This document shows, in pieces, positions 1 through 20,149 of a stretch of 64,000 nucleotides of DNA. Under the pieces are notes generated by a model. That model searched no databases. It was not told where the DNA came from and was given only the letters and a program-made list of their open reading frames with translations. Source of the DNA: Candidatus Omnitrophota bacterium (GTDB lineage Bacteria > Omnitrophota > Gorgyraeia > B26-G9); assembly GCA_043805415.1 (NCBI GenBank), contig JAZDHZ010000007.1, positions 93,786-157,785 on the forward strand, written 5' to 3'. The position numbers were made by a program, and so were the translations under genes. The number at the start of each line of letters is the position of its first letter. The stretch's first letter is position 1.

Positions 1-580
1 TTTCGATTCTTAAGGCCCGGCTGGAATTATTTTTCGGCGAGTTCTGAATTAACAACTGTCCGTGAAAAAGATTTTTAAAAACTATTCCCGCCAAGCCGCT
101 CTCTGGTTCCAGGCCGAATACTTTGGCTTTGGGATCAGCGAGAAAAACCCCCTGCCAGACATTATTCATCTCCGGGAAAACCCCTTTTTCCGCTTCACTG
201 AACCATTGCTCATAAGCATCCTTAAACATTATTCCGCTAAATGACTTTGTGATTGCTAATGGTTCTTTAACATCCAAATAAACCACCCAGCCAAAACCAT
301 TGTCAATTTTACTTATCTGCCAAAGCACTCTCAGCGGTAAATCCTCCCAATCAATGGTAATATGCAGAATATCTTGTTTTTCTTCCACCTGCCATATTCC
401 GCTGCTTGTATCATGCCAAGTCCCATTAATTAAAAAAGCCGTATGCAGGCCCAGATCATTGCTGCTCTTTGTTTTCTGATAATAAACCTGGATTTGTTTA
501 TCAGCAATAACCAGCCTGGACATGGAATTAACAAATTTATGTTTATTCAGCTTGGCGATAATTTTTTTTAATATCAGCAT
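1..580 (-). CDS. Hypothetical protein, 3'-partial (runs off window start). It is a stand-alone copy of the ~220-aa module repeated in the C-terminal extension of the Wzt-like ATPase.
   Basis: Absent from the supplied ORF track because it has no stop in the window. Manual check: the minus-strand frame (plus triplets starting at 2,5,8...) has no TTA/CTA/TCA from 2 to 580. ATG at 580-578 with GGAG (plus 588-591) 7 nt upstream. The translation MLILKKIIAKLNKHKFVNSMSRLVIADKQIQVYYQKTKSSNDLGLHTAFLINGTWHDTSSGIWQVEEKQDILHITIDWEDLPLRVLWQI... follows the same pattern as the ATPase repeats (e.g. RIRLFYDRKELTNGLCLYTAMKTKDYWFDSSQLLLQL...). Confidence 0.6.
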   Translation of the reverse strand, partial: MLILKKIIAKLNKHKFVNSMSRLVIADKQIQVYYQKTKSSNDLGLHTAFLINGTWHDTSSGIWQVEEKQDILHITIDWEDLPLRVLWQISKIDNGFGWVVYLDVKEPLAITKSFSGIMFKDAYEQWFSEAEKGVFPEMNNVWQGVFLADPKAKVFGLEPESGLAGIVFKNLFHGQLLIQNSPKNNSSRALRIE

Positions 581-721: not shown

Positions 722-1729
722 CTATTCGCTATCAAAATGACAACTAACCACTAAATGACAATTCCTCCGGCAATTATTTATCTGTTCAATATGCTTATCC
801 ATCTGTTCCGACAGACAAATCCGCTCCAGATTCTGCTTATTTTTTATATTATCGATTATTCCCAGCATCTGGCATTTTGACACATTTCCCGCAGGATCAA
901 TATTCAAAACATTGGCCTGAGCCAAATTACATCTATTGCTTTTAATAAAACTCACGGCATCAAAGAAATATTTTTTAAAAATTTTTAACTGGCCAATGCT
1001 GTCCGCGATTTTATAGCCCTGAGATTTAAACTCAATCAGCTGATTGATTATTCGCTCGATTTCCGGCTTATCGTTTGGCCAAAGGCTCTGATATTCATCA
1101 GACTGAAACCAATACTGATCAGCAGCTTCACTATAAGAAAAAGGCTGGGCTATGGCCTGAAAATTAATATACGCTAAGCGCTTGTCATTTTCCACCCACC
1201 GCGTCAGCTCAATTATATCCAAAAGATTAATCCCGCTGATCACAGTATTAATCCCGATACAAATATCCGGATTACTCTCAGCAATATTTTCAATTGCCTG
1301 TAGAACATGTTCCAATGCCCCGGGTTTGCCTCTGAGAAAATCATGAGTTTTTGGATTTAAACTATCCAGCGAAAAACAAATAAACTTTAAGCCAGAGGCA
1401 GCGATATTCGCTGCGATTTGTTTACTTACATAAAACCCATTGGAAATTAGCTGAATTTGAAGCCCTAAACCAATACCGTGTTTTATTAAATCAAATATAC
1501 CAGCGCGCAGTAAAGGTTCCCCCGGTCCGGAAAAATTAACAATACACTTACCGCGGTCCACAAATTCACTGATTTGCTCTAAAACATTCTTCCATTGTTC
1601 GATGGAAAGAATATTATCCGCGGTTAAAGGACTATCCTGCCAAAATTTGCACATCTGGCATTGAAAATTGCACTCATAGGCAATGCCCAAATCGCAATAT
1701 GTTAATTTTATATTATCTATTTTTTCCAT
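722..1729 (-). CDS. Radical SAM / SPASM-like domain protein (paralog 1 of 4)
   Basis: CxxxCxxC cluster motif C-NFQ-C-QM-C near the N-terminus. Also the GGEPLL-type 'SGPGEPLL' and 'SLDSLNPKTHDFLRGKPGALEHVLQAIENI'. C-terminal Cys-rich region (CNL...C..C..CRRNC..SC) consistent with an auxiliary Fe-S (SPASM/twitch) domain. Confidence 0.85.
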   Translation of the reverse strand: MEKIDNIKLTYCDLGIAYECNFQCQMCKFWQDSPLTADNILSIEQWKNVLEQISEFVDRGKCIVNFSGPGEPLLRAGIFDLIKHGIGLGLQIQLISNGFYVSKQIAANIAASGLKFICFSLDSLNPKTHDFLRGKPGALEHVLQAIENIAESNPDICIGINTVISGINLLDIIELTRWVENDKRLAYINFQAIAQPFSYSEAADQYWFQSDEYQSLWPNDKPEIERIINQLIEFKSQGYKIADSIGQLKIFKKYFFDAVSFIKSNRCNLAQANVLNIDPAGNVSKCQMLGIIDNIKNKQNLERICLSEQMDKHIEQINNCRRNCHLVVSCHFDSE

Positions 1730-1760
1730 TTTCTATTTTCTTTATGTTCTTGTGTCTTGT

Positions 1761-1780
1761 GGCCACGTCACGCCGTGGCC
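1761..1780 (-). other. GC-rich intercistronic hairpin (7-bp stem, 6-nt loop)
   Basis: ggccacg(1761-1767) tcacgc cgtggcc(1774-1780) is a perfect inverted repeat lying between rSAM paralogs 2 and 1. No U-tract follows on the minus strand, so it is not called a terminator. Confidence 0.4.
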
Positions 1781-1803
1781 CTACTATTCGCTATACGCTG
1801 CTT

Positions 1804-2838
1804 TCAATCTTCTTCAAAAAAACAATTGATTAAAAAATGACAGTTTTTCTTACAAGCTTTTATATTCTGCCTGATTATTCCGGCTTTTTCCGAGTTCCAG
1901 ATTATATTTATATCCTCCATCAGACGGATATCTCCGATCGGCTCAAAAGCAAAACAATGATAAATCAGTCCGATGGAACTGATATGTATTGCTTTATCCA
2001 TATTACAGCTGGTTTTTTTCACAAAGCTATCTGGATCGGATAAATACTGTTTCATTGCCTTTAGCTGAGCAATACCGTTATTTATTTTATAGCCTTTAGC
2101 TTTTAATTCTATTAACTGATCAAACAATTCACTGACCCGCTGATTGTTTTTCGGCCATAAAAACCCGTATTTGCCCTTCCACCAGTGTTCTTCCGGCAAA
2201 GTATTATTCGGCTGCATCGGCACAGTCAAAGACACATCTTTGATTTTGGGATTATCATTTACCCATTGCACCAGCTCAATTATCCCAGAATAATTCTGTT
2301 CATAAATCACACTGATCAGGGCTATTTCAATATCCGGCGCGAAACAATGCAGATTATCAATCGCCCGCATCAGCTGCGCGTAAACTCCCTCCACTCCCCG
2401 CAAATAATCATGGGTCTGCCTGTCCATGCTATCCAATGATAGTTTTATAGTTTTTAAACCTGATGCTGCCAAACGTTCGGCAGTATTCTGATCAATTAAA
2501 TATCCATTGGAGACTAAATTTGTGCGCAGTCCGGCTTTATCCGCTGCCGCGATCAGAGCGTAAATATCTTTATGCAGCAAAGCCTCTCCTCCGCCGAAAT
2601 TCAGCACAAAATCCTTGCTCACTATTTTTTTTAACTGATTAAGTAAACTCGCATACTGGCTAAGCGTGGGGAAGCAATCAGCCGCGGTATTTTTAATAAA
2701 AATATCCGGCTGCCATTTATAGCACATCTTACATTTAAGCATGCACTGATCAGTAATCCCTAAAGAAGCGAATTCCGCTTTTTCGCTTATTCGCGCCTGT
2801 TTGATTTGTTCCGGGCTATTATTTAACATATTCTTCAC
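1804..2838 (-). CDS. Radical SAM / SPASM-like domain protein (paralog 2 of 4)
   Basis: CxxxCxxC = C-MLK-C-KM-C. Also 'GGGEALL', 'SLDSMDRQTHDYLRGVEGVY' and the C-terminal Cys cluster (CNMD...C...CKKNC..NC). The start overlaps the stop of the upstream paralog (2819..2838), suggesting translational coupling. Confidence 0.85.
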   Translation of the reverse strand: MKNMLNNSPEQIKQARISEKAEFASLGITDQCMLKCKMCYKWQPDIFIKNTAADCFPTLSQYASLLNQLKKIVSKDFVLNFGGGEALLHKDIYALIAAADKAGLRTNLVSNGYLIDQNTAERLAASGLKTIKLSLDSMDRQTHDYLRGVEGVYAQLMRAIDNLHCFAPDIEIALISVIYEQNYSGIIELVQWVNDNPKIKDVSLTVPMQPNNTLPEEHWWKGKYGFLWPKNNQRVSELFDQLIELKAKGYKINNGIAQLKAMKQYLSDPDSFVKKTSCNMDKAIHISSIGLIYHCFAFEPIGDIRLMEDINIIWNSEKAGIIRQNIKACKKNCHFLINCFFEED

Positions 2839-3841
2839 TTTCGTTAAAGTTGCAGTTAACCAATGACTGACAGTTTTTTCGGCACAATTTTATCTCAGCG
2901 CGCGCCTGTTCTGCGCTCTGACTAAACCAGAGCTCACTGATCCTATTGCTTTTTATATTTCCGATTGCCTGTTTATCAAAGCATATATGCACGTCTCCGG
3001 TAGGCGTAATATTCAGTGCCCGCAGATCAAGATGACAATGATTTTGCTTTATAAAATCATTGGGCTGGGAAAAATATTTACTGAATACGGCAAACTGATC
3101 TTCCGGGTTTTCCAGCACAAAATCCGCGCGCAAATCAGAGCTGTTTTTAAGTTTTGCCAATTGGCACATTGTCTGCCGCACACAATCCTGATCATTGGGC
3201 CATAAAAAAGCGTATTCTGGTTTTTCATACCATTTATCATCAAACTCAGTATTGAACGGCTGGGTAATCGCCTGATAGCCTATGCCGTGAATGCGTTTAT
3301 CTTTATTGGCCCAAAGCGCGACTTCCACCGCGTCTTTGATATTATAACCGGATATTGTGGTTGTAATATCAATAATTATCCGCGGCGCGTATTTAGCCAG
3401 GCTTGCTATAGCCGCCGCAACTTTGTCAAAACTGCCGGGCTTACCGCGGAGAAAATCATGCGTCTTGGGATTAGCTGAATCCAGAGATATGGTTATCTGG
3501 TTTAATCCGGCTTTGGCTAAATCCTCAGCCATCAGGTCATCGAGCAGATAAGCATTTGTTGCCAGCAAAGTCTCAAAACCCTGTTCACGCGCCCAGCTGA
3601 TCAGTTCAATGGTTTCTTTTCTCAGCAAAGGCTCGCCTCCGGCAAAATTAATCCGCGGTTTTTTGGCCAGGCACATCTGCCCCAGATCAGTTATAAACGC
3701 TTTCCACTGGGTAATTGAAGGCTCCCGCGGATCTCTATATTCCACGGAATTATGCCATTTAAAGCACATCTTACAGCGCATAAAACAGCTCTCAAGTAAA
3801 GCAATACAGCAATATGTCGGTAATTTTTTGTTTTCATTCAT
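2819..3841 (-). CDS. Radical SAM / SPASM-like domain protein (paralog 3 of 4)
   Basis: CxxxCxxC = C-FMR-C-KM-C. Also 'AGGEPLL', 'SLDSANPKTHDFLRGKPGSF' and the C-terminal Cys cluster (CHLD...C...CRKNC..NC). Confidence 0.85.
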   Translation of the reverse strand: MNENKKLPTYCCIALLESCFMRCKMCFKWHNSVEYRDPREPSITQWKAFITDLGQMCLAKKPRINFAGGEPLLRKETIELISWAREQGFETLLATNAYLLDDLMAEDLAKAGLNQITISLDSANPKTHDFLRGKPGSFDKVAAAIASLAKYAPRIIIDITTTISGYNIKDAVEVALWANKDKRIHGIGYQAITQPFNTEFDDKWYEKPEYAFLWPNDQDCVRQTMCQLAKLKNSSDLRADFVLENPEDQFAVFSKYFSQPNDFIKQNHCHLDLRALNITPTGDVHICFDKQAIGNIKSNRISELWFSQSAEQARAEIKLCRKNCQSLVNCNFNESEEYVK

Positions 3842-3865
3842 GGAACTTTGTATCCTTGCAACTAG

Positions 3866-3968
3866 CTTATTCCTCGGTCTAGAATCAATTATTTCTGCTC
3901 ATTCTCGCCTTACATCCTGTAAGGCTCCGAGGATAAATCTCTGATTTTGCCAGTCCTAACAAAATCAG
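3866..3968 (-). other. Structured intergenic element (three nested/adjacent stem-loops) between rSAM paralogs 4 and 3
   Basis: Outer imperfect stem ttattcctcgg(3867-3877)/ccgaggataa(3927-3936). Inner perfect hairpin gccttaca(3907-3914)-tcc-tgtaaggc(3918-3925). Adjacent hairpin ctgattttg(3941-3949)-10 nt-caaaatcag(3960-3968). Confidence 0.4.
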
Positions 3969-4084
3969 GCTTTAAACCCGCAAAATAATTATTCTAGCCC
4001 TTTTTACTTTATCCTTTTTACTTTTTACTTCCATCTGTGTTCATCGATATTTTTTATTAGTGTTTATCACAAAAGCTTCTGCTT

Positions 4085-5125
4085 TTACTTTTCAAATTTA
4101 CAGTTAAGCAGGAAATGACAATTTTCCCGGCAATTATTAATTTCTTTTCGCACTAAATCCGCTTTTACGCTCTGCCACATTTCCCGCACTGATTTTTCCC
4201 GCACATCTCCCAAGCATTGATGGCGGTAACACATAAACATATCTCCTACAGAGCTGATATGAATCGCGTGATCAATATTACAGCTGCTCTGCTTCACATA
4301 GGTATCAGGATCAAGCAAATAGGTTTTAAACGCCTGGATATGCTCAATGGGATTACTAATCTTATAGCCTTTTGTTTTCAGCTGAATAAGCTGATCTAAA
4401 ACCGCTTCCGCCTGTTTATAATCCTTAGGCCATAGTTCATTAAACGCCGGGTCTTTCCACCACTGGGTTTGAAGTTCCGTATTATTTGGCTGCATCAGCA
4501 CCATCAGATAAATCATATTGATTTTATTATTTTCCTGAACCCAGTTAACCAGATCAACCATTCCGCCCAGCGTGGGCTGCATAATAATCGAGCAAATACT
4601 GATCTGGATATTAGGCGCGTACGCGTGCACCAGATCAATCGCGTTCATAACCTTATCATAAACCCCGTCAACTCCGCGCAAATAATCATGGGTTTTTCTA
4701 TTAAGACTGTCCAAAGAAATATTGATATAATCAAGCCCGCTGTCGCGCATCTTCTCAACCATTGGTTTATCCACAATGAAGGCATTGGTGGCAATATTGG
4801 TTTTAAACCCCAGTTCATGACAGAACTTAACCAGATCAAACAGCCATGGCACTGTAGTGATTTCTCCTCCCCCGAAATTAATAATAAAATCATTGGGCGC
4901 GATTTTACGCAAAGAAAGAGCGCTCTGTTTCCAGTCGTCAAGCCCCAGCTGTCTGCGATCATCTTTAATGTAAATATCCTGTTTCCACTTTTGACACATT
5001 CTGCAGCCCAGCATGCAATCATCGCAAATACTAAAGCAGCAAAATGTCAGTTTCGGGATCTGGCTGATATTTTCCTTTCTATTAGTAATATTATTCATTA
5101 TTAATCTCCGTAATTGTTTTAACAT
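4085..5125 (-). CDS. Radical SAM / SPASM-like domain protein (paralog 4 of 4)
   Basis: CxxxCxxC = C-MLG-C-RM-C. Also 'SLDSLNRKTHDYLRGVDGVY' and the C-terminal Cys cluster (CNID...C...CRENC..NC). An alternative, better-supported start is the ATG at 5098 (MNNITN...) with GGAG 7 nt upstream. Confidence 0.85.
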   Translation of the reverse strand: MLKQLRRLIMNNITNRKENISQIPKLTFCCFSICDDCMLGCRMCQKWKQDIYIKDDRRQLGLDDWKQSALSLRKIAPNDFIINFGGGEITTVPWLFDLVKFCHELGFKTNIATNAFIVDKPMVEKMRDSGLDYINISLDSLNRKTHDYLRGVDGVYDKVMNAIDLVHAYAPNIQISICSIIMQPTLGGMVDLVNWVQENNKINMIYLMVLMQPNNTELQTQWWKDPAFNELWPKDYKQAEAVLDQLIQLKTKGYKISNPIEHIQAFKTYLLDPDTYVKQSSCNIDHAIHISSVGDMFMCYRHQCLGDVREKSVREMWQSVKADLVRKEINNCRENCHFLLNCKFEK

Positions 5126-5128: not shown

Positions 5129-8100
5129 TCATTCCTTATCCTTATTAACTTTAATCTTTATCTTAAATTCAATTTTCTTATCCTGAACAGTAATATTTTT
5201 AGTTTTGCTTAATATTACCCGGCTATTATGATTCTCATCCGTATCTTTAATAATATTATCCCAATCAACACTGCACCAAGCTTCCCAGCTAATTTCCGGC
5301 AATTTACTGTTTTCCGCGAAAACTTTCATCTTATTCTTAGACTCAGCGACCTGACGCCAAACATCCGGATTGCTCCGCGGCGCGAACATCCCGAATTTCC
5401 GGGGATGTTCAGATACCTGCCAATTAACAAATTCTTTGTTCAGCATTATTCCCACGGCTATATCTTCAATCAGCGCAGGATCCAACTCGAAATAAATCCG
5501 CCATAATATTTCATTATCATCACCGTATTCAATTTCCTGAGTATGAGCGATTAAACAGTCTGCTTTGAATTTCAGCCGGATCATATCAGCGGTTTTATCA
5601 AGCTGTAATAATAACTGGGATGAATCAAACCAGTAATCTTTTGTTTTCATGGCTGTATACAGGCATAAGCCGTTAGTCAGCTCTTTGCGGTCATAGAACA
5701 ATCTTATTCTAGCCTGATCCAAGACAAGTTTAATTCTGCCTTTGTTCAGTTCCTTTAGCGGCAAAGTTTTTTTCTGAACACAATTATGGTTAAAATCATT
5801 AATTTTTTTCTCTTCCGAAGAAAGCAGAATATTTGCTTTAAATATTTCATGCTTACCGGGTTCAAGAACAAATGCCTGTTCCGCGAGCAAACGTTTAACT
5901 CCCAAAACAATAATCTCTTTGTTCGCTGGCTTAAATATCTGCAGCAGCCATTGCCCCATATCAGCTAAAGGAGCAAAAGCAATTTCCGCTGACTGTTCCG
6001 CGGCTAAATCAGTTTGTTTTAAAACAATATACCGGCTGCGGTTGTCGATAAGGTCTATGGCTTGAAATCCCTGGTCATGATCATTTAAAGCGATTACTCC
6101 CTTACCTAGTTCGCTCAGCCAATGCCGAAAAACTTTGGGTAAAAACATATTTATTGTCAGCGCGTATATTGCTGTTTGTTCTAAAACTTCCAGTTCCACG
6201 ATCCAGGAAATATATCCCGCTTTTTCCTGTAAATACCAGTTCTGGACAAGGAGGGGATTATTATATGTAATTTTAATAAAAAGCGTATGCGGATCCTGTT
6301 TTTTAATCTGCCAGTGCCCCTGGAAAGAATCAAATTCATCATAAGCGCTGACGATTACTGCCAAACCGCAGTCAGCGCTGATCAGCTTATTTTGATAATA
6401 AAGTTCTGTTTTTTGCTGCTTGGCTGTTAATCGGCAAGTCTCTGAACAAACTATAGAAAAATCTTGTTCGCAGTATTCATCTATTCCCTTTTGCCAGGAT
6501 TCCGGATCAACGATATCAAGTTCGGCGCTAAAAACCGGCTTCTGATCGTTTAATTCTCCGGGGTTTAATTTAGCCTGAAACTGCAGGTTCCTTGAACGAT
6601 TTGAATACTGCAGCAAGGGAGTATAAGCAAACTCGCTTAAACTATTATGCTTAAACAGCACGGCGCAGCCGGCATCATCAGTACAGGCTCCCAGCAAACA
6701 GCTGTTTAATTCTGTAAGGTCAATAAGCTTGATTTCCTGCGCGTCATTGCTGAACCTATTTTTTTCATACGCATTAATCCACTGCCGGAATCGCGGATTT
6801 AGTATGATTCCCACTTTATATTCAAAAGCATCATTTAATTCAAGCGGGTCTAAATATACATTCCAAATAAGGCTATGCTGTTTTAATTCAATCCGCCAAG
6901 ACTCTTTTACCTTGGGAAATTTTCTCTGAATGCTTACCAGCAGATAATTATCTTTTTTTTCAATTTTTTTGGCCACACCATGCGATTCATACCAGCGCTT
7001 ATTTAAAAATATTCCGCTGCTAAACCCGGCTAAAGCCGCCGTAATCTCGGTCTGTCCGAAAAATAAACGAATCCTGTCTTGGCCGCAATCAATACGCAGC
7101 GAGTCATTGCCCAGGAGATTAGCGGAATTAAATTTATCTCTTTGCTTGGCAATAAACCGCTGTTTTTCCTCAGACTGTTCAATAACCATCATTCGGCAAT
7201 TAATTGACGCGCTGTCCTGACTGCTGATCCGAATCCGCCGGGTACTTAGTTCCTGGCGGCAATTATACAGATCAATCCGGGCATTATCATCCGCCTCGGC
7301 AATAAAATGCTTATCCTGCCGCGCCTTACTGCTTAAGCCGACAAACCCGCATTTATTATGTTTTAAAATAACCTTTTCGTCAAACTCAATCGCGGGTAGA
7401 AAATCATTTTCCTGAGTTAATTCAAAATACGAATCATAATCATCAGTCAGATCAGCGTCGATCCAGATTAAGCTCTGGCTCTGTTCTAGGCTTTGCCCAT
7501 TTTTCAGCGACATTTTAAGCAATAATTCCTTGCCGGTTAAAATTAAATTTAATCTTACCTGAATCTGTTGCGTAAAAAATTCAGAATCAACCGCGAATTC
7601 CGCCTCACTGATCTTTGTGATTTTCCATTTTCCCTCAAATATATTATAAACATGATTTTGCTGTTTAAATCCGCAAACCAGTCCAAAGCCTTTGCTTATT
7701 TGTTCTGTTCCGTTAAAAAGCTGAAAACTTTTTTCTTCCAGCTTAAGCGTTAAACTATCTTTGCTGATGCGGATTTTTTCCTGCTGCTGCCTGAGCTTTT
7801 GTTCCAGCTGTTTTTTATCCAGCAGCTGAATCAGGGTTTTACATACCGCGCTTTGTTTCTGGTCTAAGAAAACATGCGTTTGGATAATATTTGCCGCGAA
7901 ACCTTCCTGGCGCTGGATCAAACCAAAACCGCGCTGCTGGTCGATATTAAAATTCGCCCAGACCGCGGGGATATCCGAATCAGCCGCGGACAATACCAGT
8001 AAAGCCTCCTTCTGGTCAGTACGATACAAATCCTGGCATTGCTCAGTGGTAAAATTTTCCGCGGCCCGCATAGGTTTTATTTTATCCGCGTCCAGATAAT

Positions 8101-9184
8101 GTTTATATTGATCATTAAACATAAAGCCGAAAACCGCTCTTTCCGCTTTTTGATCAGCCGTCAGGTTAATACTGCCGATACATTCAAATTCTCGCTCATT
8201 CTCCAGTTTAACCTGGATTTGCGCGCTTATCCGATTAGCCCATTGCCCCTGGACAAGAAAAAAATCTTTTTCGGTTTTAATTACCTGCCAATTCGCCTCC
8301 CAGGACATCAGCCATTTATCCCAGAGTTTTAAGCTTAAATACCCGCCAAAATCAGCGGTTATCGGTTTTCCGTCCCAAAGCAAGACAAGCCTTCCGCTAT
8401 TAAAAATAATGCTCAGTTTTTCCTGGTCAATGCAGGCAATAGCCTGTTTCTGCCCCACTGCCTGGACATAGCGGATAATTGATTTATGGATTGAGTCATC
8501 TTTTACTATCTGTCCGGTTTTCAGCAAAATACCCCGGGTGGCAATCCGGCTTAAAGAATCCAGATCATGGGAAACAATTACCACGGTCGCACCTTGTTTG
8601 TTCATTTCCATTATTCGCTTTAAACACTTAGCCTGAAACTCGGCATCGCCCACAGCCAGACTGTCATCAATCAGGAAAATATCCGGATTTACATGCACAG
8701 CCACGGAAAAGCCTAAACGCACGAGCATGCCCTGGGAATAAGTTTTTACCTGAGAGTCAATGAACTCATTTAGCCCGGAAAATTCAACGATTTCAGCAAA
8801 CAGGGCGTGAGTCTGTTTTTTACTCAAACCATAAAGCGCGGCATCAAGATAGATATTTTCTCTTCCGGTTAATTCCGGATGAAATCCCGCGCCTAAATCA
8901 AGCAGTCCCGCTACTTTGCCTTTAACATATATTTGCCCGCTGGAGGGCACCGTGATTTGGCTGATAATCCTCAGAATTGTTGTTTTGCCTGAAGCGTTTT
9001 CTCCGATAATCCCCAGAATCTCGCCTTTTTGCACTGAGAAACTAATATCTTTTAATGCCAAGACCTCGCGCTTGTTCCGGGCTTTTTTAAAAAAAGACAG
9101 AAAATTGCTGACTAAGAATTGTTTCCCTGAATTAAAACAATACTTTTTGCTGATGTTTTTCAGTTCAATAACTTTTTCTGACAT
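5129..9184 (-). CDS. Polysaccharide-exporter ABC ATPase (Wzt/TagH-like) fused to a ~1,100-aa C-terminal extension of five repeat modules
   Basis: Walker A GENASGKTT (aa 61-69; nt ~8978-9004), signature YSQGMLVRLGF, Walker B IFLIDDSLAVGD, H-loop VSHD. It lies next to an ABC-2 permease. From aa ~250 onward the protein is non-ATPase and internally repetitive. Confidence 0.85.
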   Translation of the reverse strand: MSEKVIELKNISKKYCFNSGKQFLVSNFLSFFKKARNKREVLALKDISFSVQKGEILGIIGENASGKTTILRIISQITVPSSGQIYVKGKVAGLLDLGAGFHPELTGRENIYLDAALYGLSKKQTHALFAEIVEFSGLNEFIDSQVKTYSQGMLVRLGFSVAVHVNPDIFLIDDSLAVGDAEFQAKCLKRIMEMNKQGATVVIVSHDLDSLSRIATRGILLKTGQIVKDDSIHKSIIRYVQAVGQKQAIACIDQEKLSIIFNSGRLVLLWDGKPITADFGGYLSLKLWDKWLMSWEANWQVIKTEKDFFLVQGQWANRISAQIQVKLENEREFECIGSINLTADQKAERAVFGFMFNDQYKHYLDADKIKPMRAAENFTTEQCQDLYRTDQKEALLVLSAADSDIPAVWANFNIDQQRGFGLIQRQEGFAANIIQTHVFLDQKQSAVCKTLIQLLDKKQLEQKLRQQQEKIRISKDSLTLKLEEKSFQLFNGTEQISKGFGLVCGFKQQNHVYNIFEGKWKITKISEAEFAVDSEFFTQQIQVRLNLILTGKELLLKMSLKNGQSLEQSQSLIWIDADLTDDYDSYFELTQENDFLPAIEFDEKVILKHNKCGFVGLSSKARQDKHFIAEADDNARIDLYNCRQELSTRRIRISSQDSASINCRMMVIEQSEEKQRFIAKQRDKFNSANLLGNDSLRIDCGQDRIRLFFGQTEITAALAGFSSGIFLNKRWYESHGVAKKIEKKDNYLLVSIQRKFPKVKESWRIELKQHSLIWNVYLDPLELNDAFEYKVGIILNPRFRQWINAYEKNRFSNDAQEIKLIDLTELNSCLLGACTDDAGCAVLFKHNSLSEFAYTPLLQYSNRSRNLQFQAKLNPGELNDQKPVFSAELDIVDPESWQKGIDEYCEQDFSIVCSETCRLTAKQQKTELYYQNKLISADCGLAVIVSAYDEFDSFQGHWQIKKQDPHTLFIKITYNNPLLVQNWYLQEKAGYISWIVELEVLEQTAIYALTINMFLPKVFRHWLSELGKGVIALNDHDQGFQAIDLIDNRSRYIVLKQTDLAAEQSAEIAFAPLADMGQWLLQIFKPANKEIIVLGVKRLLAEQAFVLEPGKHEIFKANILLSSEEKKINDFNHNCVQKKTLPLKELNKGRIKLVLDQARIRLFYDRKELTNGLCLYTAMKTKDYWFDSSQLLLQLDKTADMIRLKFKADCLIAHTQEIEYGDDNEILWRIYFELDPALIEDIAVGIMLNKEFVNWQVSEHPRKFGMFAPRSNPDVWRQVAESKNKMKVFAENSKLPEISWEAWCSVDWDNIIKDTDENHNSRVILSKTKNITVQDKKIEFKIKIKVNKDKE
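5132..8416 (-). other. Five tandem ~220-aa protein repeat modules within the ATPase extension
   Basis: Module anchors of type x-I/L-x-L-F/Y..G.E.IT...GL lie at aa ~257, 478, 696, 917 and 1149 (nt ~8416, 7753, 7099, 6436, 5740). Examples: LSIIFNSGRLVLLWDGKPIT; LTLKLEEKSFQLFNGTEQIS; LRIDCGQDRIRLFFGQTEIT; CRLTAKQQKTELYYQNKLIS; IKLVLDQARIRLFYDRKELT. Each is followed by W..W.(I/V) and L.W.(I/V) motifs. Confidence 0.6.
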
Positions 9185-9208: not shown

Positions 9209-9988
9209 TTAAGTAAAATCAGCGAAAAATTTCTTATTATTCCTAAATAAAACAATGCCCAATATCCCAAAGCCAAGGCTTATGCCCAGCATCCAGCCAA
9301 GGGCAAAAAAACCGGGAACTTTAGCATAAAGCAAAATATCCCGGTAAGCGTTTATATACAAGCTCAAGGGATTAAGGTAAAAAAATCCTCGGATATTTTC
9401 CGGAACCAAAGACAAAGGATAAAAAATCGGAGTAGCATAAAACCATACCAGCATAATCAGCTCAATAATATATTTCACATCCCGGTAAAAAGTATGCAAA
9501 GCCGCCACAGACAGGCAAAGCCCAACAATAAATACAGTCTGAAGAATGATTATCAGCGGCAGATAAACCCACGGCCAGCTGGGGAAAATTCTAAAATAAG
9601 CTAAAAACGCGAATAGGAGAAACTGGGAAATAAGAAAATTAAACAGATTCGCGCAAACAACGGAAAGCGGAATCACTTCATAAGGAAAATAAGCTTTTTT
9701 AATCAGACTGGCATTATCGACTATTGAAGTCGCGGCCGCGGTTAAAGAAAAATTCAGAAAAAACCAGGGCAAAAGCGCGCTCAGAAGAAATACCGGATAA
9801 TTGGCAATCTGGATCTTCATAATAAAAGTAAACACCAGGCTGAAAACCAGCATTAAAAGCAAAGGATTGAGCAAAGACCATAGCCAGCCTAAGACCGCTG
9901 ACTTATACTTTATTTTTATTTCTTTTTTAGTCAGGCTGATAATCAAATTGCGGTAAGCATAAATGCTTTTTATATAAGCGTAACTCAT
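9209..9988 (-). CDS. ABC-2 type polysaccharide-exporter permease (Wzm/TagG-like)
   Basis: 259 aa with about six hydrophobic segments. The N-terminal 'YRNLIISLTKKEIKIKYKSAVLGWLWSLLNPL' is typical of ABC-2 permeases. It sits immediately upstream of the cognate ATPase. Confidence 0.8.
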   Translation of the reverse strand: MSYAYIKSIYAYRNLIISLTKKEIKIKYKSAVLGWLWSLLNPLLLMLVFSLVFTFIMKIQIANYPVFLLSALLPWFFLNFSLTAAATSIVDNASLIKKAYFPYEVIPLSVVCANLFNFLISQFLLFAFLAYFRIFPSWPWVYLPLIIILQTVFIVGLCLSVAALHTFYRDVKYIIELIMLVWFYATPIFYPLSLVPENIRGFFYLNPLSLYINAYRDILLYAKVPGFFALGWMLGISLGFGILGIVLFRNNKKFFADFT

Positions 9989-11277
9989 AGTTTATTTATC
10001 TCCTGAGCAATAACCTTTCCATCAATAATCACATCTTCCATTGACATGTATTTCCATTGCCCAAACCGTCCCACGGGAAAGATATTATTCGCTTTTAAAA
10101 AATCATTCAGCGCCTGCATGCTCAGACGATAATTATGATCATATACAACATAGGCATATTTAATATTATGCGCGTGGGAAACTAAAATAAGATCATCCTT
10201 GGTTAAAATCCCAGCGCTGATCAAATCATTTTGGATTATTTTATTTATATCTTTTTTGGGCAAAGGTTTATTTTCGGAATATGATACTTCCGCGTATAAA
10301 GAACTTTTATTCGCGGGAGCAACATTCTGCGAAAAATTCATCGGAAACCCCAGCCGAAAAAAAACAAACTTATCTTCCGGATAATAAATCCAGTGTTTAT
10401 CACTTATCCGCGGCCGGTCAATGCCCAGATTAAGATTATATATTGAGATATATCTAAGCTGGGAAAACGCGGTTTTTACTTTTTCCGGCATCTTATTAAC
10501 AATTAGTTTCTTTAATTCAATCATCGGCAAAGAACAAATAAGCTGCGTAAACTTTTCGGTTCGGCCATTATTAAATTTTACTGTTTTCTGCTCGAGATCT
10601 ATTGCCTGCGTCTCATGTTCAGTATATATGTTTTTGACCTGGTTAGCAAAAGCTTTTGCCAGCTGATCAATTCCCCCGGTTTGCGGATACCAGAATTCAC
10701 TATTATAACCCAAGGCTTTGGTTTTTAAAGTAAATGCTCCATCCAGGACTGTTTTTATTTTTACCTGAGGAACATAATTCACTGTCCAATCAGCTATAAG
10801 CTCTTGCGGCGGCACAGTCCAAAATTTATAGTTATAGGGATACATGAAATATTTTGTTATCCCCTTGCCAAACCTATCTAACATCCACTCGTAAAGATTT
10901 TGCTGGTCATTATCTTTTGTTTTCAATGAGGCTTTGAGCATTCCGAGAATGCATTTTTTTACTATTTGCAAAGGCAAGCCAAAAGTATTTGCCTGAAAAG
11001 GATATTTCGTATAGATATCATGAGAGTAAATCCAGGCATTACGCTTATGGCTAGATAATAAATCCGGCAAAAGTTTATTAATTAATTGTTTAACATAATT
11101 GGTTTTAAAATGCAGAAGATGCCCATCATAATCAAAAATAAAACCATTCACCAAATCAGTGCGGGCAAGACCGCCGACCTGGTCTTCTTTTTCAAATATC
11201 TTAACTTCATCCTGAATATGAAAAGCAGTGCTTAATCCAGCAAGCCCAGCACCTAAAATTATAATTTTCTTACTCAT
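9985..11277 (-). CDS. FAD/NAD(P)-binding oxidoreductase, UDP-galactopyranose-mutase / amine-oxidase-like
   Basis: N-terminal Rossmann motif KIIILGAGLAGLSTA (GxGxxG) followed by 'IFEKEDQVGG'. The C-terminal 'GRFGQWKYMSMEDVI' resembles the Glf-family C-terminus. 4-nt ATGA overlaps with both neighbours. The exact activity is not determinable. Confidence 0.6.
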   Translation of the reverse strand: MSKKIIILGAGLAGLSTAFHIQDEVKIFEKEDQVGGLARTDLVNGFIFDYDGHLLHFKTNYVKQLINKLLPDLLSSHKRNAWIYSHDIYTKYPFQANTFGLPLQIVKKCILGMLKASLKTKDNDQQNLYEWMLDRFGKGITKYFMYPYNYKFWTVPPQELIADWTVNYVPQVKIKTVLDGAFTLKTKALGYNSEFWYPQTGGIDQLAKAFANQVKNIYTEHETQAIDLEQKTVKFNNGRTEKFTQLICSLPMIELKKLIVNKMPEKVKTAFSQLRYISIYNLNLGIDRPRISDKHWIYYPEDKFVFFRLGFPMNFSQNVAPANKSSLYAEVSYSENKPLPKKDINKIIQNDLISAGILTKDDLILVSHAHNIKYAYVVYDHNYRLSMQALNDFLKANNIFPVGRFGQWKYMSMEDVIIDGKVIAQEINKL

Positions 11278-12290
11278 TCATTTATTTCCAATCGGCTTAA
11301 TTTCATTCCGACTAAACACATAATGCTAATAACCAATAAAAACATAAATAAACCCAAAGTATTTGAACCGAGAAAAATCACTAATGCGCAGCAATTAGTG
11401 ATAATCGCCAGGATGATCATTATCCGCAATATCGATCCCTTGGAAATTCCGATTTTAAGCATTCTGAATACAAAATGATCATTACTTTTCATAAAAATAG
11501 ATTTTTTTTGCCTAAACCGCACAAAAATAACAAAAAGCATATCAAAAAGCGGTAAAGCCAGGATTACTAGAGGGATAACCAAACCGATTTCATGACCTGT
11601 GGGCGCGAAACTTAATGATATTGCCATTACTGCCAGGGAAAACCCCAAAAACTGACTGCCCGCATCACCCATAAATATCCGCGCCGGAGGCAGATTATAT
11701 TTTAAAAAAGCAATTAAAACCGCACACTGAAGTCCGGCGATAAGGATAACAAAATGATTGTTTGTTAAAACCGCAAAAATCAAAAAAACAATCGTACTGA
11801 TTAAAGCCACGCCCCCAGCCAGCCCATCAAGTATATCCAGCAGATTAAACGCGTTAATCAATAAAATAATCCAGAAAAAACTCAAAACTATATTAAAAAA
11901 AGTGTTCAGATAAACAATCTCTGTTCGCATCACAAAACCAATTAGCAGCATTGCCCCGAGGAATTGCCCTGCCAGTTTTTCCCTGGGATTCATTTCTTTA
12001 ATATCATCATAAAAGCCAAGCAATGTGATAATCGCGGCTGCCAGCATAAACATACAGAATCCAAATAAGTCAATCGAGAAACAAGGAAAGCGGACAAACG
12101 CGAAACCAAGAATTAAAAACACACTGAACATGCCGATTCCGCCAAGATAAGGAACCTGTCTTGGATCTATTTTTTGCGGAGCAGGACCAGTAACAAAACC
12201 CTTAGCTTTCGCGAATTTTTCCAACAAGGGCAATAAAAAATAGCATAAGCCAAAAGCACTGATAAATAATAAACCAATAGTACTGGACAT
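11274..12290 (-). CDS. Glycosyltransferase family 4 polyprenyl-phosphate sugar-1-phosphate transferase (WecA/MraY family)
   Basis: Polytopic membrane protein with the family motifs 'FYDDIKE', 'NAFNLLDILDGLAGG' and 'FMGDAGSQFLGF'. It is the first gene of the glycan-export operon. Confidence 0.8.
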   Translation of the reverse strand: MSSTIGLLFISAFGLCYFLLPLLEKFAKAKGFVTGPAPQKIDPRQVPYLGGIGMFSVFLILGFAFVRFPCFSIDLFGFCMFMLAAAIITLLGFYDDIKEMNPREKLAGQFLGAMLLIGFVMRTEIVYLNTFFNIVLSFFWIILLINAFNLLDILDGLAGGVALISTIVFLIFAVLTNNHFVILIAGLQCAVLIAFLKYNLPPARIFMGDAGSQFLGFSLAVMAISLSFAPTGHEIGLVIPLVILALPLFDMLFVIFVRFRQKKSIFMKSNDHFVFRMLKIGISKGSILRIMIILAIITNCCALVIFLGSNTLGLFMFLLVISIMCLVGMKLSRLEINE

Positions 12291-12478: not shown

Positions 12479-12507
12479 AATATAGCAAAAAACAGCTAAG
12501 TTGTCAA
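12479..12507 (-). promoter_or_regulatory. Candidate sigma70-type promoter for the wecA-like operon
   Basis: The minus strand reads TTGACA (12507-12502), a 17-nt spacer, then TATATT (12484-12479), about 190 nt upstream of the ATG at 12290. AT-rich background makes chance matches possible. Confidence 0.4.
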
Positions 12508-12625: not shown

Positions 12626-13009
12626 TTATGACGACAGCTCTAATCCTTCGAGAAAATCATCAACAATTTTTTTATTCTGGTCATTTTTCCACCAGGAAAA
12701 GCTTATCCCTGATCTATATTTATCAGCATCCTGGTAAGTCCATTCCACTTTGCCGAAAACTCTTATTGGGCTAATAGTTTCATTTAGTAAAATATCTATA
12801 CTTAGACGTGTGCCAACAGCCATTGTTTCTTTTGAATAAATTCCTGCGCCGAAAAGAGTAAAATCCCGCAAAAAGCATTCTGTTCCGTTCCAATAGCGAA
12901 ACCATGCCTGCGGATCTAAGGGCCTAACCTGTACAGCTGATTTATCAGCTAATTTTCTTATATTCGCTCTCTGTTCCTTTGCGATAATATCCATATTTTT
13001 TTGCTCCAA
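12626..13009 (-). CDS. Stand-alone PilZ domain protein (putative c-di-GMP receptor)
   Basis: RxxxR (R-ANI-R) followed by a D-x-S/T-x-x-G-type motif (DFTLFGAG). About 55% identical by eye to the PilZ gene at 37540..37899 (shared RPLDPQ.WFR.WN, IRVFGKVEW, SFSWWK). Confidence 0.75.
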   Translation of the reverse strand: MEQKNMDIIAKEQRANIRKLADKSAVQVRPLDPQAWFRYWNGTECFLRDFTLFGAGIYSKETMAVGTRLSIDILLNETISPIRVFGKVEWTYQDADKYRSGISFSWWKNDQNKKIVDDFLEGLELSS

Positions 13010-13262
13010 TTCAGCTTATTTCAGATTAATAGTTTCTTTAATTTATTTGCTCTTATTTAATCTATTTTTCAAACCCGCAGAGAATAAATCAAAACTATTT
13101 CCCATAGTTTTATAAAGCCTTTTTAAATATTTCATAAGTTTACACTAATGTTTAATTTTTTGCAAATTATTTTTTAAAAATGACAACCATTTTCACGTCA
13201 CCGCGTCGTGGAACGGTTGCAGCCAAATGGATGAATTAAGTATTGTGTCCCTTTATTTACCT

Positions 13263-13937
13263 TTATTTAGGCAGGGAAATTGTAGCAGTATAGTCATTTT
13301 TGTAAAATTCAGGGTTTGTTGTTTGTGTGCCCATGCCCATTTCTATGGTAATCAATACTTCTATCTTGCTCGGCGCTCCGTCAGTTCGTGAATCCCAGTC
13401 AATGAATGGAGCTCCGGAGCTGTCAAAAAAAGTAAATTGTAAATCAGTGATATTTTCGGAAAATGGATCGCTTGATCCAGTATTAAAATTAAAATCAAAA
13501 CCAACCGGATCTAAGGTTTTTCTACCGTCAGTAACATAAAATCTTTCTAATACATCATCATTTAATTCCGCGGTTCCCTGCCCATCCAGCCAGAATCCAA
13601 CTTCACATAAATCGGATTTATCAGCTTCATTTGGATTTAAAGCAGCAATAAAATAAAGTTCATCGCCAATGCTATCTGTTCTCCATCCGCTGGGAGTGGT
13701 TTTATCAAATCCTAAACAATAAAAATTATTACCTTCTCTAATCACCGCGCTGGAAATCTCTCGAGTCATTCGATCTAAAACAACCCGCGCGATAGTCGTA
13801 GATTTTAAAATATTATCCGCCTTTTTCCAAGCACGCAAAGAAACATTAAAAACCGAATACAAAATCGCTATCAGTAAAGCAAGAATTCCGATAGAAACTA
13901 AAAGCTCAATCAGGGTAAATCCTTTTTTTAAAACCAT
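13263..13937 (-). CDS. Type II secretion / type IV pilus-like pseudopilin (GspJ/PulJ-like)
   Basis: Prepilin-type N-terminal cleavage/methylation motif KKG|FTLIELLVSIGILALL followed by 'VVLDRMTREISSA', as in minor pseudopilins. The start overlaps the stop of the upstream gene. Confidence 0.75.
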   Translation of the reverse strand: MVLKKGFTLIELLVSIGILALLIAILYSVFNVSLRAWKKADNILKSTTIARVVLDRMTREISSAVIREGNNFYCLGFDKTTPSGWRTDSIGDELYFIAALNPNEADKSDLCEVGFWLDGQGTAELNDDVLERFYVTDGRKTLDPVGFDFNFNTGSSDPFSENITDLQFTFFDSSGAPFIDWDSRTDGAPSKIEVLITIEMGMGTQTTNPEFYKNDYTATISLPK

Positions 13938-16240: not shown

Positions 16241-16278
16241 CCGTCCTTGGCTAAACTACACTATTCATAGTTAATTTC

Positions 16279-18231
16279 CTAAAATATATTATACTCCTCT
16301 TTGGCAAAAATTGCAAAATTAGTGCCCGCGGCTGAGATTGAGCCGCTATCCGGCGTATACCAGCCATGTCCGGTATCAACAGCGCTATTACTGGCATAAG
16401 GCAAGCCTCCGCTGCCTTTGCTTAAACCAAAGGCTGAACGCACAAGCATCAGTTTTTCCAGCTCGCCCAGATAATAATCCGCTCTGCGCTCATATTTATC
16501 CGCCTTAGCCGGATCTGATTGCTGTTTATAAAAACTGCTGATCTGGCGAAAAGCGACAACCATTTGCGCTGTCCATTCTACTGAAATTGTTCCGCTTCTG
16601 CTGATGCTTGAAGGCGCGCAAAAATCAAAACCGCTTATGTTTATTTTTTTGCCTGAAATATTTTTAACATTTATAGTGGTCTTGCAATTTTCCTCCGCGC
16701 AGTCGATCAGATCATCAATTGTAACTCCCATATCTTCCAGTCCTTCCGGGCCAAAAGCCATAATGCTCAGGGCAATCGTATCAGTCGCGATCATCCGATC
16801 ATCAGTACCGCGATTAAATCTTTTTAATGTTTTATTATAAGCGGTATCTTTAAGCCAGCCATGTATTTTCCGCGCGGCCAGAGCATAGCGCTGATCATGC
16901 TCGGTTTTAAATAGGGTTTTAAAAAATATATACGCGGCAATATTCTGCTCTGTACCGGCCCAACTAACCTGAGGCCCTCCCGGCAAAGATCCATCACTAT
17001 TTTTGTTTTGCAAATCAAGCAGCCAATCAGCTATTTCATAAACCAGTTTGCTATAGGTATTTTTACCAGTAGCTTGTTCATAACGCATAATTGCCAGGCC
17101 TAAATAGATAACTGGTCCGGTGTGCACAATATATTCTGAAACATTGCCGGTAATTACATCATAGGCATTAGCAAACCCGCCTTGAACTTTTTTAGCGCGG
17201 TTATTAAAAAAATCAAAAATAAGTTCCGCCTTTTCAAACTGTTTAAAATTAATAAAATTAAACGCGCTCAGAGCCTGGTCATAAGTAAATCCGACATCGA
17301 TTAAAGCATGATCATTATCATAACTTACAATAAGCCCGGTCTTACTGCTTTGCGAAGCAATAAGCCATTGCCGCATTAAATCCAGAGTCTTATCTTCTAA
17401 AACAACTCTTTTATCACTGATTTTCTCAAGCTTGGTCTCCAAAACAGCCTGGGTATCAGTGTATTTATTAAGCTTAGTCTGCATCTTTTGTTTTTCCGCG
17501 AATAAGTCAGCGAGCTGTTTTTTTAGCTTGCTTTGATCTACCAGCAATTTTTCAACTTCTTCAGTATTCTGCTCGCCGGCTTGCTGATTTTTAAGCGTCT
17601 CGATCTTTGCTAATTTTTCCTTCATCTGATTTTCCGCTTTTGAACTATTATTCAGCATATTGGCTAAAATAAACTTTTCCGCTTTAATTTTATCCAGTTC
17701 TTGGTTTACCATAAACTGTTCATCATTTAACTGTCCCAGATGCTGAACAAGTAAACTATTATCGCGGGTAAGCCGGATATTGTCATAAGCTAAAAACCCG
17801 CAAAATAAGACTAATAGCAAACCAGCCAAAGCAATCATCCGCGGAATAGCCAGCATAATCTTAGCAAAACGGATTATGCGTTTTTGTTCAACTTGATCAA
17901 TCGCTTCATACGCTAATCCGAGCATATAACTTTGGGGATAGGGAGCGGCGGTTTTTTTTGACCAGGCAACACGCGCGATGGCTTTAATTGGGTTTTGGGT
18001 TAAGGGAATATTTAAAAATACTTGAAGTTTGTTTTTGTTGTTTTTCAGTAATTCAGTATGCTCCTGGCTTAAACTGTTTATTTCCACGCATACACCTGAA
18101 AAACTTACGTCCCGGGTAAACCCCTGCATTAAATCGCTGATCGGCTTATTTTGAGCATCAACTATTTTTAATTCAACCGGAAATATCTTATTGAGCCGAA
18201 CGTATTTTCTTTGATCATTTATCATAGGCAA
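16279..18231 (-). CDS. PilZ - TM - coiled coil - alpha/alpha-toroid-like domain protein (C-terminal domain paralogous to giant ORF aa ~2605-3040)
   Basis: The N-terminus has RxxxR (R-KYV-R) and DVSFSGV (DxSxxG), followed by a TM segment (LAIPRMIALAGLLLVLFCGFLAY) and a Q/K/E-rich coiled coil. The C-terminal ~350 aa align motif-by-motif with the giant ORF: FTYDQAL/FTYDLAL, LQNKNSDGSLPGGP/LQDEDGGIRQGP, TEQNIAAY/TEENINAF, ATDTIALSIMAFGPE/ATDVNALAVIVLGPE. Confidence 0.7.
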   Translation of the reverse strand: MPMINDQRKYVRLNKIFPVELKIVDAQNKPISDLMQGFTRDVSFSGVCVEINSLSQEHTELLKNNKNKLQVFLNIPLTQNPIKAIARVAWSKKTAAPYPQSYMLGLAYEAIDQVEQKRIIRFAKIMLAIPRMIALAGLLLVLFCGFLAYDNIRLTRDNSLLVQHLGQLNDEQFMVNQELDKIKAEKFILANMLNNSSKAENQMKEKLAKIETLKNQQAGEQNTEEVEKLLVDQSKLKKQLADLFAEKQKMQTKLNKYTDTQAVLETKLEKISDKRVVLEDKTLDLMRQWLIASQSSKTGLIVSYDNDHALIDVGFTYDQALSAFNFINFKQFEKAELIFDFFNNRAKKVQGGFANAYDVITGNVSEYIVHTGPVIYLGLAIMRYEQATGKNTYSKLVYEIADWLLDLQNKNSDGSLPGGPQVSWAGTEQNIAAYIFFKTLFKTEHDQRYALAARKIHGWLKDTAYNKTLKRFNRGTDDRMIATDTIALSIMAFGPEGLEDMGVTIDDLIDCAEENCKTTINVKNISGKKINISGFDFCAPSSISRSGTISVEWTAQMVVAFRQISSFYKQQSDPAKADKYERRADYYLGELEKLMLVRSAFGLSKGSGGLPYASNSAVDTGHGWYTPDSGSISAAGTNFAIFAKEEYNIF

Positions 18232-18285
18232 ATAATATCGGGTATCAGTTGATTTAGGGTTTCAGGTTAAATGACTTAAGGTTTA

Positions 18286-20109: not shown

Positions 20110-20149
20110 GCGCGATCACTTCCTTTGGTTTTGTCTGATTATTTTTACT

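Follow-up and report, generated by a model that had tools for sequence, protein, structure and literature searches.

Known targets of tailoring by radical S-adenosylmethionine (SAM) enzymes are peptides, cofactors, lipids and small sugar antibiotics. The SPASM subfamily (PF13186 / TIGR04085) is recognized by the cysteine signature CX9-15GX4C, a gap, CX2CX5CX3C, a second gap and a last C, with two auxiliary [4Fe-4S] clusters, and the twitch domain of the BtrN and MoaA type is an abridged SPASM that has a β-hairpin cysteine pair, a downstream cysteine and one auxiliary cluster. HpnJ, involved in hopanoid cyclitol-ether formation, and the calditol synthase Cds represent radical SAM remodelling of a lipid-linked sugar. 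To our knowledge, there is no exported polysaccharide with an assembly line dominated by radical SAM enzymes. Here, four tandem radical SAM genes, R4 to R1, are described from a 64,000-nucleotide stretch of DNA (contig JAZDHZ010000007.1, "the window" in the following) of a Candidatus Omnitrophota bacterium, where they lie behind the genes of a Wzm/Wzt-type glycan export pathway. Omnitrophota are ultra-small bacteria thought to be attached to or to prey on other cells. Neither the radical SAM superfamily nor the export pathway is new in itself; the new element is their combination. R1–R4 probably belong to an undescribed family of soluble radical SAM enzymes of approximately 340 amino acids, centred on Omnitrophota, and act as the tailoring block of this glycan pathway.

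The four radical SAM genes

The names R4 to R1 follow the order of transcription, and the genes of the window are all on the minus strand, as are all long open reading frames (ORFs) of its first 37 kb.

4085-5125, minus strand: R4, radical SAM paralog of 346 amino acids, starting 3 nucleotides past the Wzt stop
2819-3841, minus strand: R3, radical SAM paralog of 340 amino acids, the top match to the SPASM model and the copy with a modelled structure
1804-2838, minus strand: R2, radical SAM paralog of 344 amino acids, with a GTG start and a 20-nucleotide overlap with R3
722-1729, minus strand: R1, radical SAM paralog of 335 amino acids, with an ATG start

The original prediction, made from the sequence alone, had described four consecutive paralogs of 335–346 amino acids, two of them overlapping, and its coordinates proved exact. 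All four proteins pass the Pfam model Radical_SAM (PF04055) with 64–78 bits against a cut-off of 29.5 and possess both the CX3CX2C and the GGE-type motif, the features by which membership of the superfamily is recognized. Their pairwise identity is 27–47%, and the other paralogs share 32–39% with R1 in a four-way alignment. The same alignment displays the shared CxxxCxxC, SLDS....THD(F/Y)LRG..G and LWP(N/K)(D/N) motifs that had been predicted, in addition to G-x-G-E, and resolves the predicted C-terminal cysteine cluster into C..13..GxxxxC followed by CxxxCxxxxxC. The GGE(P/A)LL motif, which had been ascribed to all copies, is found in three of them, but R4 has GGEITT. No transmembrane segment was found in R1–R4 by a hydrophobicity scan; the cluster motif begins 19–38 residues from the N-terminus, and the alignment contains no N-terminal domain before it. 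The dN/dS values against the closest relative (L005/L006, 72–81% identity; loci of relatives are numbered with L) are 0.03–0.16 across the copies, with 0.03 for R4 and 0.11 for R1, and the four are therefore real genes under purifying selection.

Family identity and the C-terminal cysteine domain

When 1.84 billion cluster representatives were searched exhaustively with the family profile, 2150 sequence clusters matched at E <= 1e-30, and the top 150 matches are all near-full-length with at least 280 bits. The sole database name on proteins of this family is "radical SAM protein". Across 198 family members (R3 numbering), the invariant residues comprise CX3CX2C, G-x-G-E and the five cysteines C269, C287, C320, C324 and C330, together with W29, H128, D129, R132, W204, W214, P215 and Y256; G282 precedes C287. 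The C-terminal cysteines are spaced as C269-x17-C287 and then C-x3-C-x5-C, and the chain stops 5–16 residues past the last one. The seven-cysteine SPASM signature is therefore not present, as there are five invariant cysteines and the chain ends so soon after them. The Pfam SPASM model is passed by R3 and R4 with 31.6 and 25.0 bits (R2 stays below the cut-off with 17.0 bits, and R1 has no match), and the SPASM-like label of the original prediction needs correcting in that the C-terminal domain has five conserved cysteines and not seven.

The C269-x17-C287 pair with three downstream cysteines is compatible with the twitch pattern. The family profile aligns to residues 184–257 of BtrN, its twitch segment, with an E value of 2.6e-8, and the NCBIfam model N_Twi_rSAM gives 47–71 bits against a cut-off of 170. 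Judged from these patterns, the C-terminal domain of R1–R4 looks like a twitch-like or truncated SPASM domain. The retention of an auxiliary-cluster domain makes oxidative or electron-shuttling chemistry of the kind carried out by BtrN or anSME plausible.

Classification with NCBIfam (TIGRFAM-type) models, which had been proposed as a check, showed that no curated radical SAM subgroup claims R1–R4. Their best scores are 66–87 bits (NirJ2, AhbD, viperin, GeoRSP and WgkB) against cut-offs of 180–650, and the models for haem d1 or alternative haem synthesis (NirJ, AhbC/D), MoaA and viperin likewise reach at most 87 bits against 180–650. A function in cofactor or metalloenzyme maturation (NirJ/AhbD-like haem, MoaA-like or a tungsten-enzyme maturase) or an antiviral, viperin-like function, which would make the genes chance neighbours of a glycan operon, agrees with the names of the top NCBIfam matches (NirJ2, AhbD, viperin and MoaA) and with the PADLOC pVip model at 66–94 bits. 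However, 66–94 bits compare with cut-offs of 180–650 and stem from the radical SAM core only (for pVip, profile positions 3–165 of 257), no haem, molybdopterin or nucleotide-kinase partner genes are present, and the linkage to Wzm/Wzt and to the REP repeat described below is kept in at least 10 genomes; such a function is highly improbable. Assignments to cofactor biosynthesis and to viperin were dropped, NCBIfam, Pfam and PADLOC having given no family above cut-off.

The AlphaFold2 model of R3 (pLDDT, the predicted local distance difference test, of 93) is a partial TIM-barrel, and the nearest solved structure to this fold is BlsE, a sugar-nucleoside enzyme (PDB 7VOB). The substrate class is not fixed by the fold alone.

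The export cassette and its conservation

The radical SAM genes are preceded in the operon by four genes for priming, sugar supply and export.

12479..12507, minus strand: promoter candidate, sigma-70-like, 11/12 consensus positions plus extended TG, by pattern match only; the top match upstream of the first cassette gene
11274..12290, minus strand: GT4, polyprenyl-phosphate sugar-1-phosphate transferase of the WecA/MraY family (Pfam PF00953 Glycos_transf_4, 121 bits), the first cassette gene
9985..11277, minus strand: flavoenzyme, the "FAD enzyme" of the original prediction (Pfam Amino_oxidase and NAD_binding_8)
9209..9988, minus strand: Wzm-type ABC-2 permease (Pfam ABC2_membrane, PF01061, 61 bits) with multiple hydrophobic segments
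5129..9184, minus strand: Wzt/TagH-type ATP-binding cassette (ABC) ATPase of 1351 amino acids (Pfam ABC_tran, PF00005, only), its nucleotide-binding domain in approximately the first 240 residues

GT4 is polytopic, with approximately 10 hydrophobic segments, and scores 92 bits with the NCBIfam WecA model, under its cut-off. It overlaps the next gene by 4 nucleotides and keeps the same position in L002, L005, L008, L010 and L015. The flavoenzyme is a full-length homologue of the eukaryote-type UDP-galactopyranose mutases (UGM): a phmmer search of PDB matched its residues 2–411 to the Trypanosoma cruzi enzyme (4dsg, E 2.6e-43) and gave E 5e-39 for the Aspergillus fumigatus enzyme, and the bacterial-type model TIGR00031 yields 38 bits vs 304. 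Most of the UGM signature stretches (GH, YPFQ-N, PYN-K-W, F-R and GRFG-W-Y) are present, but one Arg is exchanged for Tyr, as described below. The permease has galactan export Wzm as its top NCBIfam match, under the cut-off, and the ATPase scores 153–183 bits with the TagH/Wzt models, also under their cut-offs; Wzt_C (PF14524) was not found by Pfam in the Wzt of the window.

From GT4 through the UGM-like gene, Wzm and Wzt to R4, neighbouring genes on the same strand either overlap by 4 nucleotides or are separated by 3–24 nucleotides. A sugar-1-phosphate transferase (PF00953), an ABC-2 permease (PF01061) and a Wzt/TagH-type ATPase (PF00005), the components by which a Wzm/Wzt pathway is recognized, are found in one operon, for which 12479..12507 is only a candidate start, proposed from the pattern. 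The paralogs had been predicted to lie downstream of a WecA-like GT4, an FAD enzyme and a Wzm/Wzt-like exporter, and both the gene identities and the tight packing agree.

A homologue search identified 64 close relatives, nearly all from Omnitrophota, and every ORF of their loci, about 40 in number, was labelled with profiles built from the window. The recurring cassette is GT4, flavoenzyme, Wzm, Wzt (1140–1370 amino acids), R4, R3, R2, R1, a large radical SAM enzyme BIG1, zero to three SGNH/GDSL genes and a second large enzyme, BIG2. This order is kept in L002, L005, L008, L010, L012, L013 and L015 at only 46–81% identity. The same four orthogroups occur in the same order in at least 10 other Omnitrophota genomes (10–13 loci): R4 in 10 loci at 56–81% identity, R2 in 13 and R1 in 13. 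Mean identity is 55–63% within the orthogroups vs 31–41% between them, which defines four distinct groups, and the R3/R2 overlap recurs with 20–29 nucleotides in L002, L005, L008 and L010. The four copies are thus old and distinct, and the array is a phylum-wide conserved feature rather than a local oddity. The comparison of genome neighbourhoods suggested with the original prediction accordingly found array and exporter linked in at least 10 genomes. Four-fold duplication had been considered uncommon, but four is the low end here: canonical cassettes have 4–6 copies, some with one or two extra, and in Omnitrophota loci of a second type the number rises to as many as 11 full-length copies in 20 kb (L022, L024 and L037), in addition to fused or truncated ones.

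The REP repeat and the large radical SAM enzymes

The C-terminal extension of Wzt, 1100 amino acids long, consists of five copies of a repeat of approximately 190 amino acids, here called REP, which were located with a hidden Markov model (HMM). The gene following R1 also begins with one.

7880-8455, minus strand: Wzt REP 1, amino acids 244–435 (HMM)
7229-7792, minus strand: Wzt REP 2, amino acids 465–652 (HMM)
6581-7138, minus strand: Wzt REP 3, amino acids 683–868 (HMM)
5918-6469, minus strand: Wzt REP 4, amino acids 906–1089 (HMM)
5210-5773, minus strand: Wzt REP 5, amino acids 1138–1325 (HMM)
1..580, minus strand: N-terminus of BIG1 with its REP copy 1, cut by the window edge; the full protein has approximately 1183 amino acids in relatives

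The structure model of REP (pLDDT 91) is all-β and matches the galactose-mutarotase-like supersandwich. On Wzt, REP occupies the place where the classical Wzt has the glycan-binding Wzt_C. Gene content beyond the window start was taken from the closest relatives, L005 and L006. In these and other relatives, BIG1 combines three REP copies with a radical SAM/SPASM domain behind them, and BIG2 (approximately 1400 amino acids) is composed of a B12-radical SAM domain, REP, a radical SAM/SPASM domain and further REP, so that the repeat numbers five on Wzt, three on BIG1 and one or two on BIG2. HpnJ is the closest match to the N-terminal B12-radical SAM domain of BIG2, with 270 bits against an NCBIfam cut-off of 578. 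This domain suggests, by analogy, either methylation or a contraction of a sugar ring as in HpnJ.

Wzt, the R proteins and BIG1 have no transmembrane segment in the hydrophobicity scan, and these proteins, hence the REP modules, are therefore placed in the cytoplasm. A word-indexed homologue search with a REP fragment returned no matches. The idea that REP might itself be the protein on which the small radical SAM enzymes act was rejected, as none of its alignment columns reaches 90% conservation. In one related locus (L029:1-7320), a protein of at least 2439 amino acids with at least 11 tandem REP copies is encoded upstream of an array of small radical SAM genes.

Fusions and related loci

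Natural two- and three-copy radical SAM fusions and B12-radical SAM fusions exist in the family, and the two- and three-copy forms suggest that the paralogs work together. Three proteins of the same radical SAM family (P0125, P0136 and P0185) are fusions of an N-terminal family 2 glycosyltransferase (GT2) with two radical SAM domains. With the family HMM, the last domain of P0185 (residues 1169–1487) reaches 280 bits. The P0185 gene is found one gene downstream from a Wzt that carries canonical Wzt_C, and at least six further radical SAM/SPASM genes flank it. L045:6816-14482 (and L046) comprises a Wzt with Wzt_C, a 475-amino-acid protein without Pfam match and a 1493-amino-acid GT2-rSAM-rSAM fusion, and the surroundings in L045 hold at least six additional radical SAM/SPASM genes together with an FkbM-type methyltransferase and Fe-S aldo-keto reductases. 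The accessory genes of related loci encode SGNH/GDSL proteins, PMT_2 (GT-C) transferases and a carbamoyltransferase, all of which are typical glycan-tailoring functions.

Search for a peptide substrate

Enzymes with SPASM-like features are candidates for maturases of ribosomally synthesized and post-translationally modified peptides (RiPPs), for which a co-encoded precursor and a fused or adjacent RiPP recognition element (RRE) are expected; neither was found here. Small ORFs outside the large genes of the approximately 40 loci were clustered by all-against-all BLAST. In the canonical cassettes, no small ORF proved to be conserved, neither within the genes nor between them; most clusters of small ORFs are truncated radical SAM fragments. 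Junctions of the canonical cassettes are mostly -32 to +26 nucleotides. The R4-R3 spacer of the window is longer.

3842..4084: R4-R3 spacer of 243 nucleotides, with minus-strand ORFs of 20 and 25 codons only

This junction measures 3–68 nucleotides in relatives vs 243 in the window, and the spacer contains no radical SAM gene remnant detectable by HMM, no DNA similarity to the closest relative and no Rfam match above noise. Similarly, no PqqD/RRE domain (PF05402) was found in R1–R4, BIG1 or the neighbouring genes, nor did the approximately 40 related loci yield one. The claim that no plausible precursor ORF is present can be extended from the window to the canonical cassettes of the related loci, where none is conserved either.

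A conserved, basic and Trp-rich ORF of 47–49 amino acids (MAETNWQKF.KHCK.GGLFYA..RG.KY..WRN.C...GIDW..FSR) was observed in five many-paralog loci only, between a radical SAM/SPASM gene of approximately 410 amino acids and the first small radical SAM paralog. The window lacks this ORF, which may encode a small subunit or serve as peptide substrate in loci of the many-paralog type.

L021:2062-2208: 47–49-amino-acid ORF
L033:10019-10168: 47–49-amino-acid ORF
L034:11062-11211: 47–49-amino-acid ORF
L037:3613-3756: 47–49-amino-acid ORF
L040:7909-8052: 47–49-amino-acid ORF

In the closest relative, a 54-amino-acid ORF without Pfam match (L005:10697-10861) lies in a 319-nucleotide R2-R1 spacer; it is not conserved, since the R2-R1 junction of the window is only 74 nucleotides long.

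R1–R4 as RiPP or protein maturases, installing thioether or C-C bonds or epimerized residues in a peptide that is encoded elsewhere and exported by the ABC transporter, would account for the SPASM-like features and for fusions of some relatives to tetratricopeptide repeat (TPR) arrays, described below. This is quite unlikely, however, since the NCBIfam scores reach at most 87 bits against cut-offs of 400–650, no RRE or PqqD domain is present, the cluster motif starts close to the N-terminus, and the transporter is of the ABC-2/Wzm-Wzt type and not a peptidase-containing peptide exporter. The junctions are also tight and free of any conserved small ORF, the spacer of the window is not conserved, the 47–49-amino-acid ORF is missing from it, and REP, having no invariant residue, is an unlikely target of modification.

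Proposed pathway and substrate class

We infer a carbohydrate substrate on four independent grounds: the operon encodes a UGM homologue, REP is common to the exporter ATPase and the radical SAM fusions, GT2 fusions occur in the family and BlsE has the nearest fold. The idea that the enzymes act on a glycan rather than a peptide was already part of the original prediction, and it is strengthened by the UGM homology, the REP repeats, the GT2 fusions (one of them near a Wzt with Wzt_C) and the BlsE fold.

In the proposed pathway, the WecA-type transferase would prime polyprenyl phosphate with a sugar phosphate, and the UGM-like flavoenzyme would supply or make a furanose sugar. The carbohydrate, either a nucleotide sugar or a lipid-linked glycan at the cytoplasmic face, would then be remodelled by R4, R3, R2 and R1 with a distinct reaction each, every reaction starting by hydrogen abstraction with a 5'-deoxyadenosyl radical and leading to dehydrogenation, epimerization, deoxygenation, decarboxylation or C-C/C-methyl chemistry. 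BIG1 and BIG2 would act after them, and the five REP modules that Wzt holds in the cytoplasm would recognize the finished glycan for export. The REP modules may recruit BIG1, BIG2 and the exporter to the same glycan, and REP would be for glycans the counterpart of Wzt_C in the classical Wzt and of the RRE in RiPP maturases.

A farther-reaching version, which we put forward tentatively as a possibility, is a carbohydrate counterpart of RiPP maturation, where a REP-bound, lipid-linked glycan is rewritten in the cytoplasm by six to more than 15 radical SAM domains and the exporter reads the same repeats. Such a line would combine four to eleven small twitch-like paralogs with B12-dependent and SPASM fusion enzymes for epimerization, C-methylation, deoxygenation, ring contraction or C-C cross-linking.

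Several observations weigh against a glycan pathway with R1–R4 as its tailoring block. No chain-extending glycosyltransferase (GT1, GT2 or similar) was found in the cassette or in window 1-36856, where the priming GT4 stands alone, and this is the main gap of the glycan model. GT2 occurs only in the fusions of other family members, and PMT_2 (GT-C) in some of the loci. The flavoenzyme has Tyr for the Arg of "(M)RPYNFKVW" (FMYPYNYKFW, approximately residues 135–145); because of this exchange, its substrate may be other than a UDP-sugar. Neither REP nor another sugar-binding module is present on the small paralogs themselves. In some relatives, a long TPR array is fused to the N-terminus, which gives proteins of 617–1078 amino acids (L003:4873-8109, L014 and L019; P0119, P0133 and P0140). 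TPR repeats usually bind proteins, and one possibility is that these arrays serve as a scaffold for a multi-enzyme complex.

Finally, the top PDB sequence match of the family is a lipid enzyme, the tetraether synthase homologue GDGT-MAS (5e-23). Modification of a lipid, either the polyprenyl carrier or a membrane-spanning or hopanoid-like lipid, by ring formation, C-C coupling or methylation along the chain, with the ABC-2 transporter moving the product, could explain this match, a weak NCBIfam match to Tes and the proximity of the BIG2 B12 domain to HpnJ (270 bits vs 578), and position-specific paralogs would account for the variable copy number. Metagenome-assembled genomes of Omnitrophota have also been reported with Hbs/Mss lipid genes (bioRxiv 10.1101/2023.10.20.563219), which counts in favour of a lipid. 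However, the matches span the generic radical SAM core only, and the cassette has no prenyl, fatty-acid or glycerol-ether genes; its context is a sugar-phosphate transferase, a UGM homologue and Wzm/Wzt, with REP of a carbohydrate-enzyme fold and GT2 fusions in the family. HpnJ itself works on the sugar moiety of a glycolipid. A lipid substrate is thus unlikely, and glycan tailoring is retained as the preferred explanation.

If it is correct, the locus would open a new area of anaerobic glycan chemistry, REP would be a new substrate-recruitment domain, the glycan analogue of the RRE, and a handle on the Omnitrophota cell envelope would be available. The assembly-line version would further imply a class of radical-tailored envelope polysaccharides not seen in cultured bacteria.

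Other genes of the window

Upstream of the cassette, window 12626-26525 (minus strand) encodes two PilZ-domain proteins (127 and 650 amino acids), a protein with a prepilin-type N-methylation motif (224 amino acids), a 767-amino-acid protein without Pfam match, a TPR/PKD protein, two GH2_C/GH72-like TIM-barrel proteins and an MFS_2 sugar transporter. These genes may represent a second surface-polymer system controlled by c-di-GMP and are not kept beside the cassette in other genomes. An AbiEii-type nucleotidyltransferase toxin gene is located at 35160-36059 (minus strand), preceded by the overlapping ORFs 36043-36432 and 36377-36856 without Pfam match, and 35160-36856 is likely a type IV toxin-antitoxin pair. 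Window 38025-63998 (minus strand) is an ORF of 8657 amino acids whose only Pfam matches, Peptidase_M23 (amino acids 1227–1340), LysM and Helicase_C, are all in the first half; the second 4257 amino acids have none. Very long proteins have been reported for Omnitrophota, and this ORF fits that pattern.

Comparison with known systems

A literature search found no radical SAM arrays in Omnitrophota and no radical SAM enzymes in polysaccharide assembly of the Wzm/Wzt type; the matches it gave for Xanthomonas had no bearing on the subject. The nearest structural relative, BlsE, is the cytosylglucuronate decarboxylase of blasticidin S synthesis (PDB 7VOB); it shares approximately 21% identity with the family, and the NCBIfam BlsE model scores 36–67 bits against a cut-off of 400. 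BlsE, BtrN, DesII, SpeY and AbmM are sugar-acting enzymes of the twitch type encoded in single copy and working on soluble antibiotic precursors, whereas the family described here forms arrays of 4–11 paralogs tied to a polysaccharide exporter. In contrast to the SPASM maturases anSME, SkfB, CteB, SuiB and PqqE, it has five C-terminal cysteines, no RRE and no precursor peptide. In comparison with HpnJ and Cds, it is the N-terminal domain of BIG2 that is most HpnJ-like; R1–R4 lack a B12 domain, and there is no hopanoid or archaeal-lipid context.

The locus resembles the ABC-dependent O-antigen, galactan and teichoic-acid pathways (WecA/TagO with Glf and Wzm/Wzt or TagGH, as in Klebsiella and in mycobacterial galactan) in having a priming PNPT, a mutase homologue, an ABC-2 permease and an extended ATPase. 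Unlike those pathways, it has five mutarotase-like repeats in place of Wzt_C, neither a chain-extending glycosyltransferase nor a WbdD-type terminator in the cassette, and an additional block of at least six radical SAM domains. We know of no characterized ABC-dependent glycan pathway with such a block. The features that are new are fixed-order arrays of an uncharacterized twitch-like family, a REP repeat that replaces Wzt_C and is also fused to radical SAM domains, and the fusions of GT2 with radical SAM enzymes.

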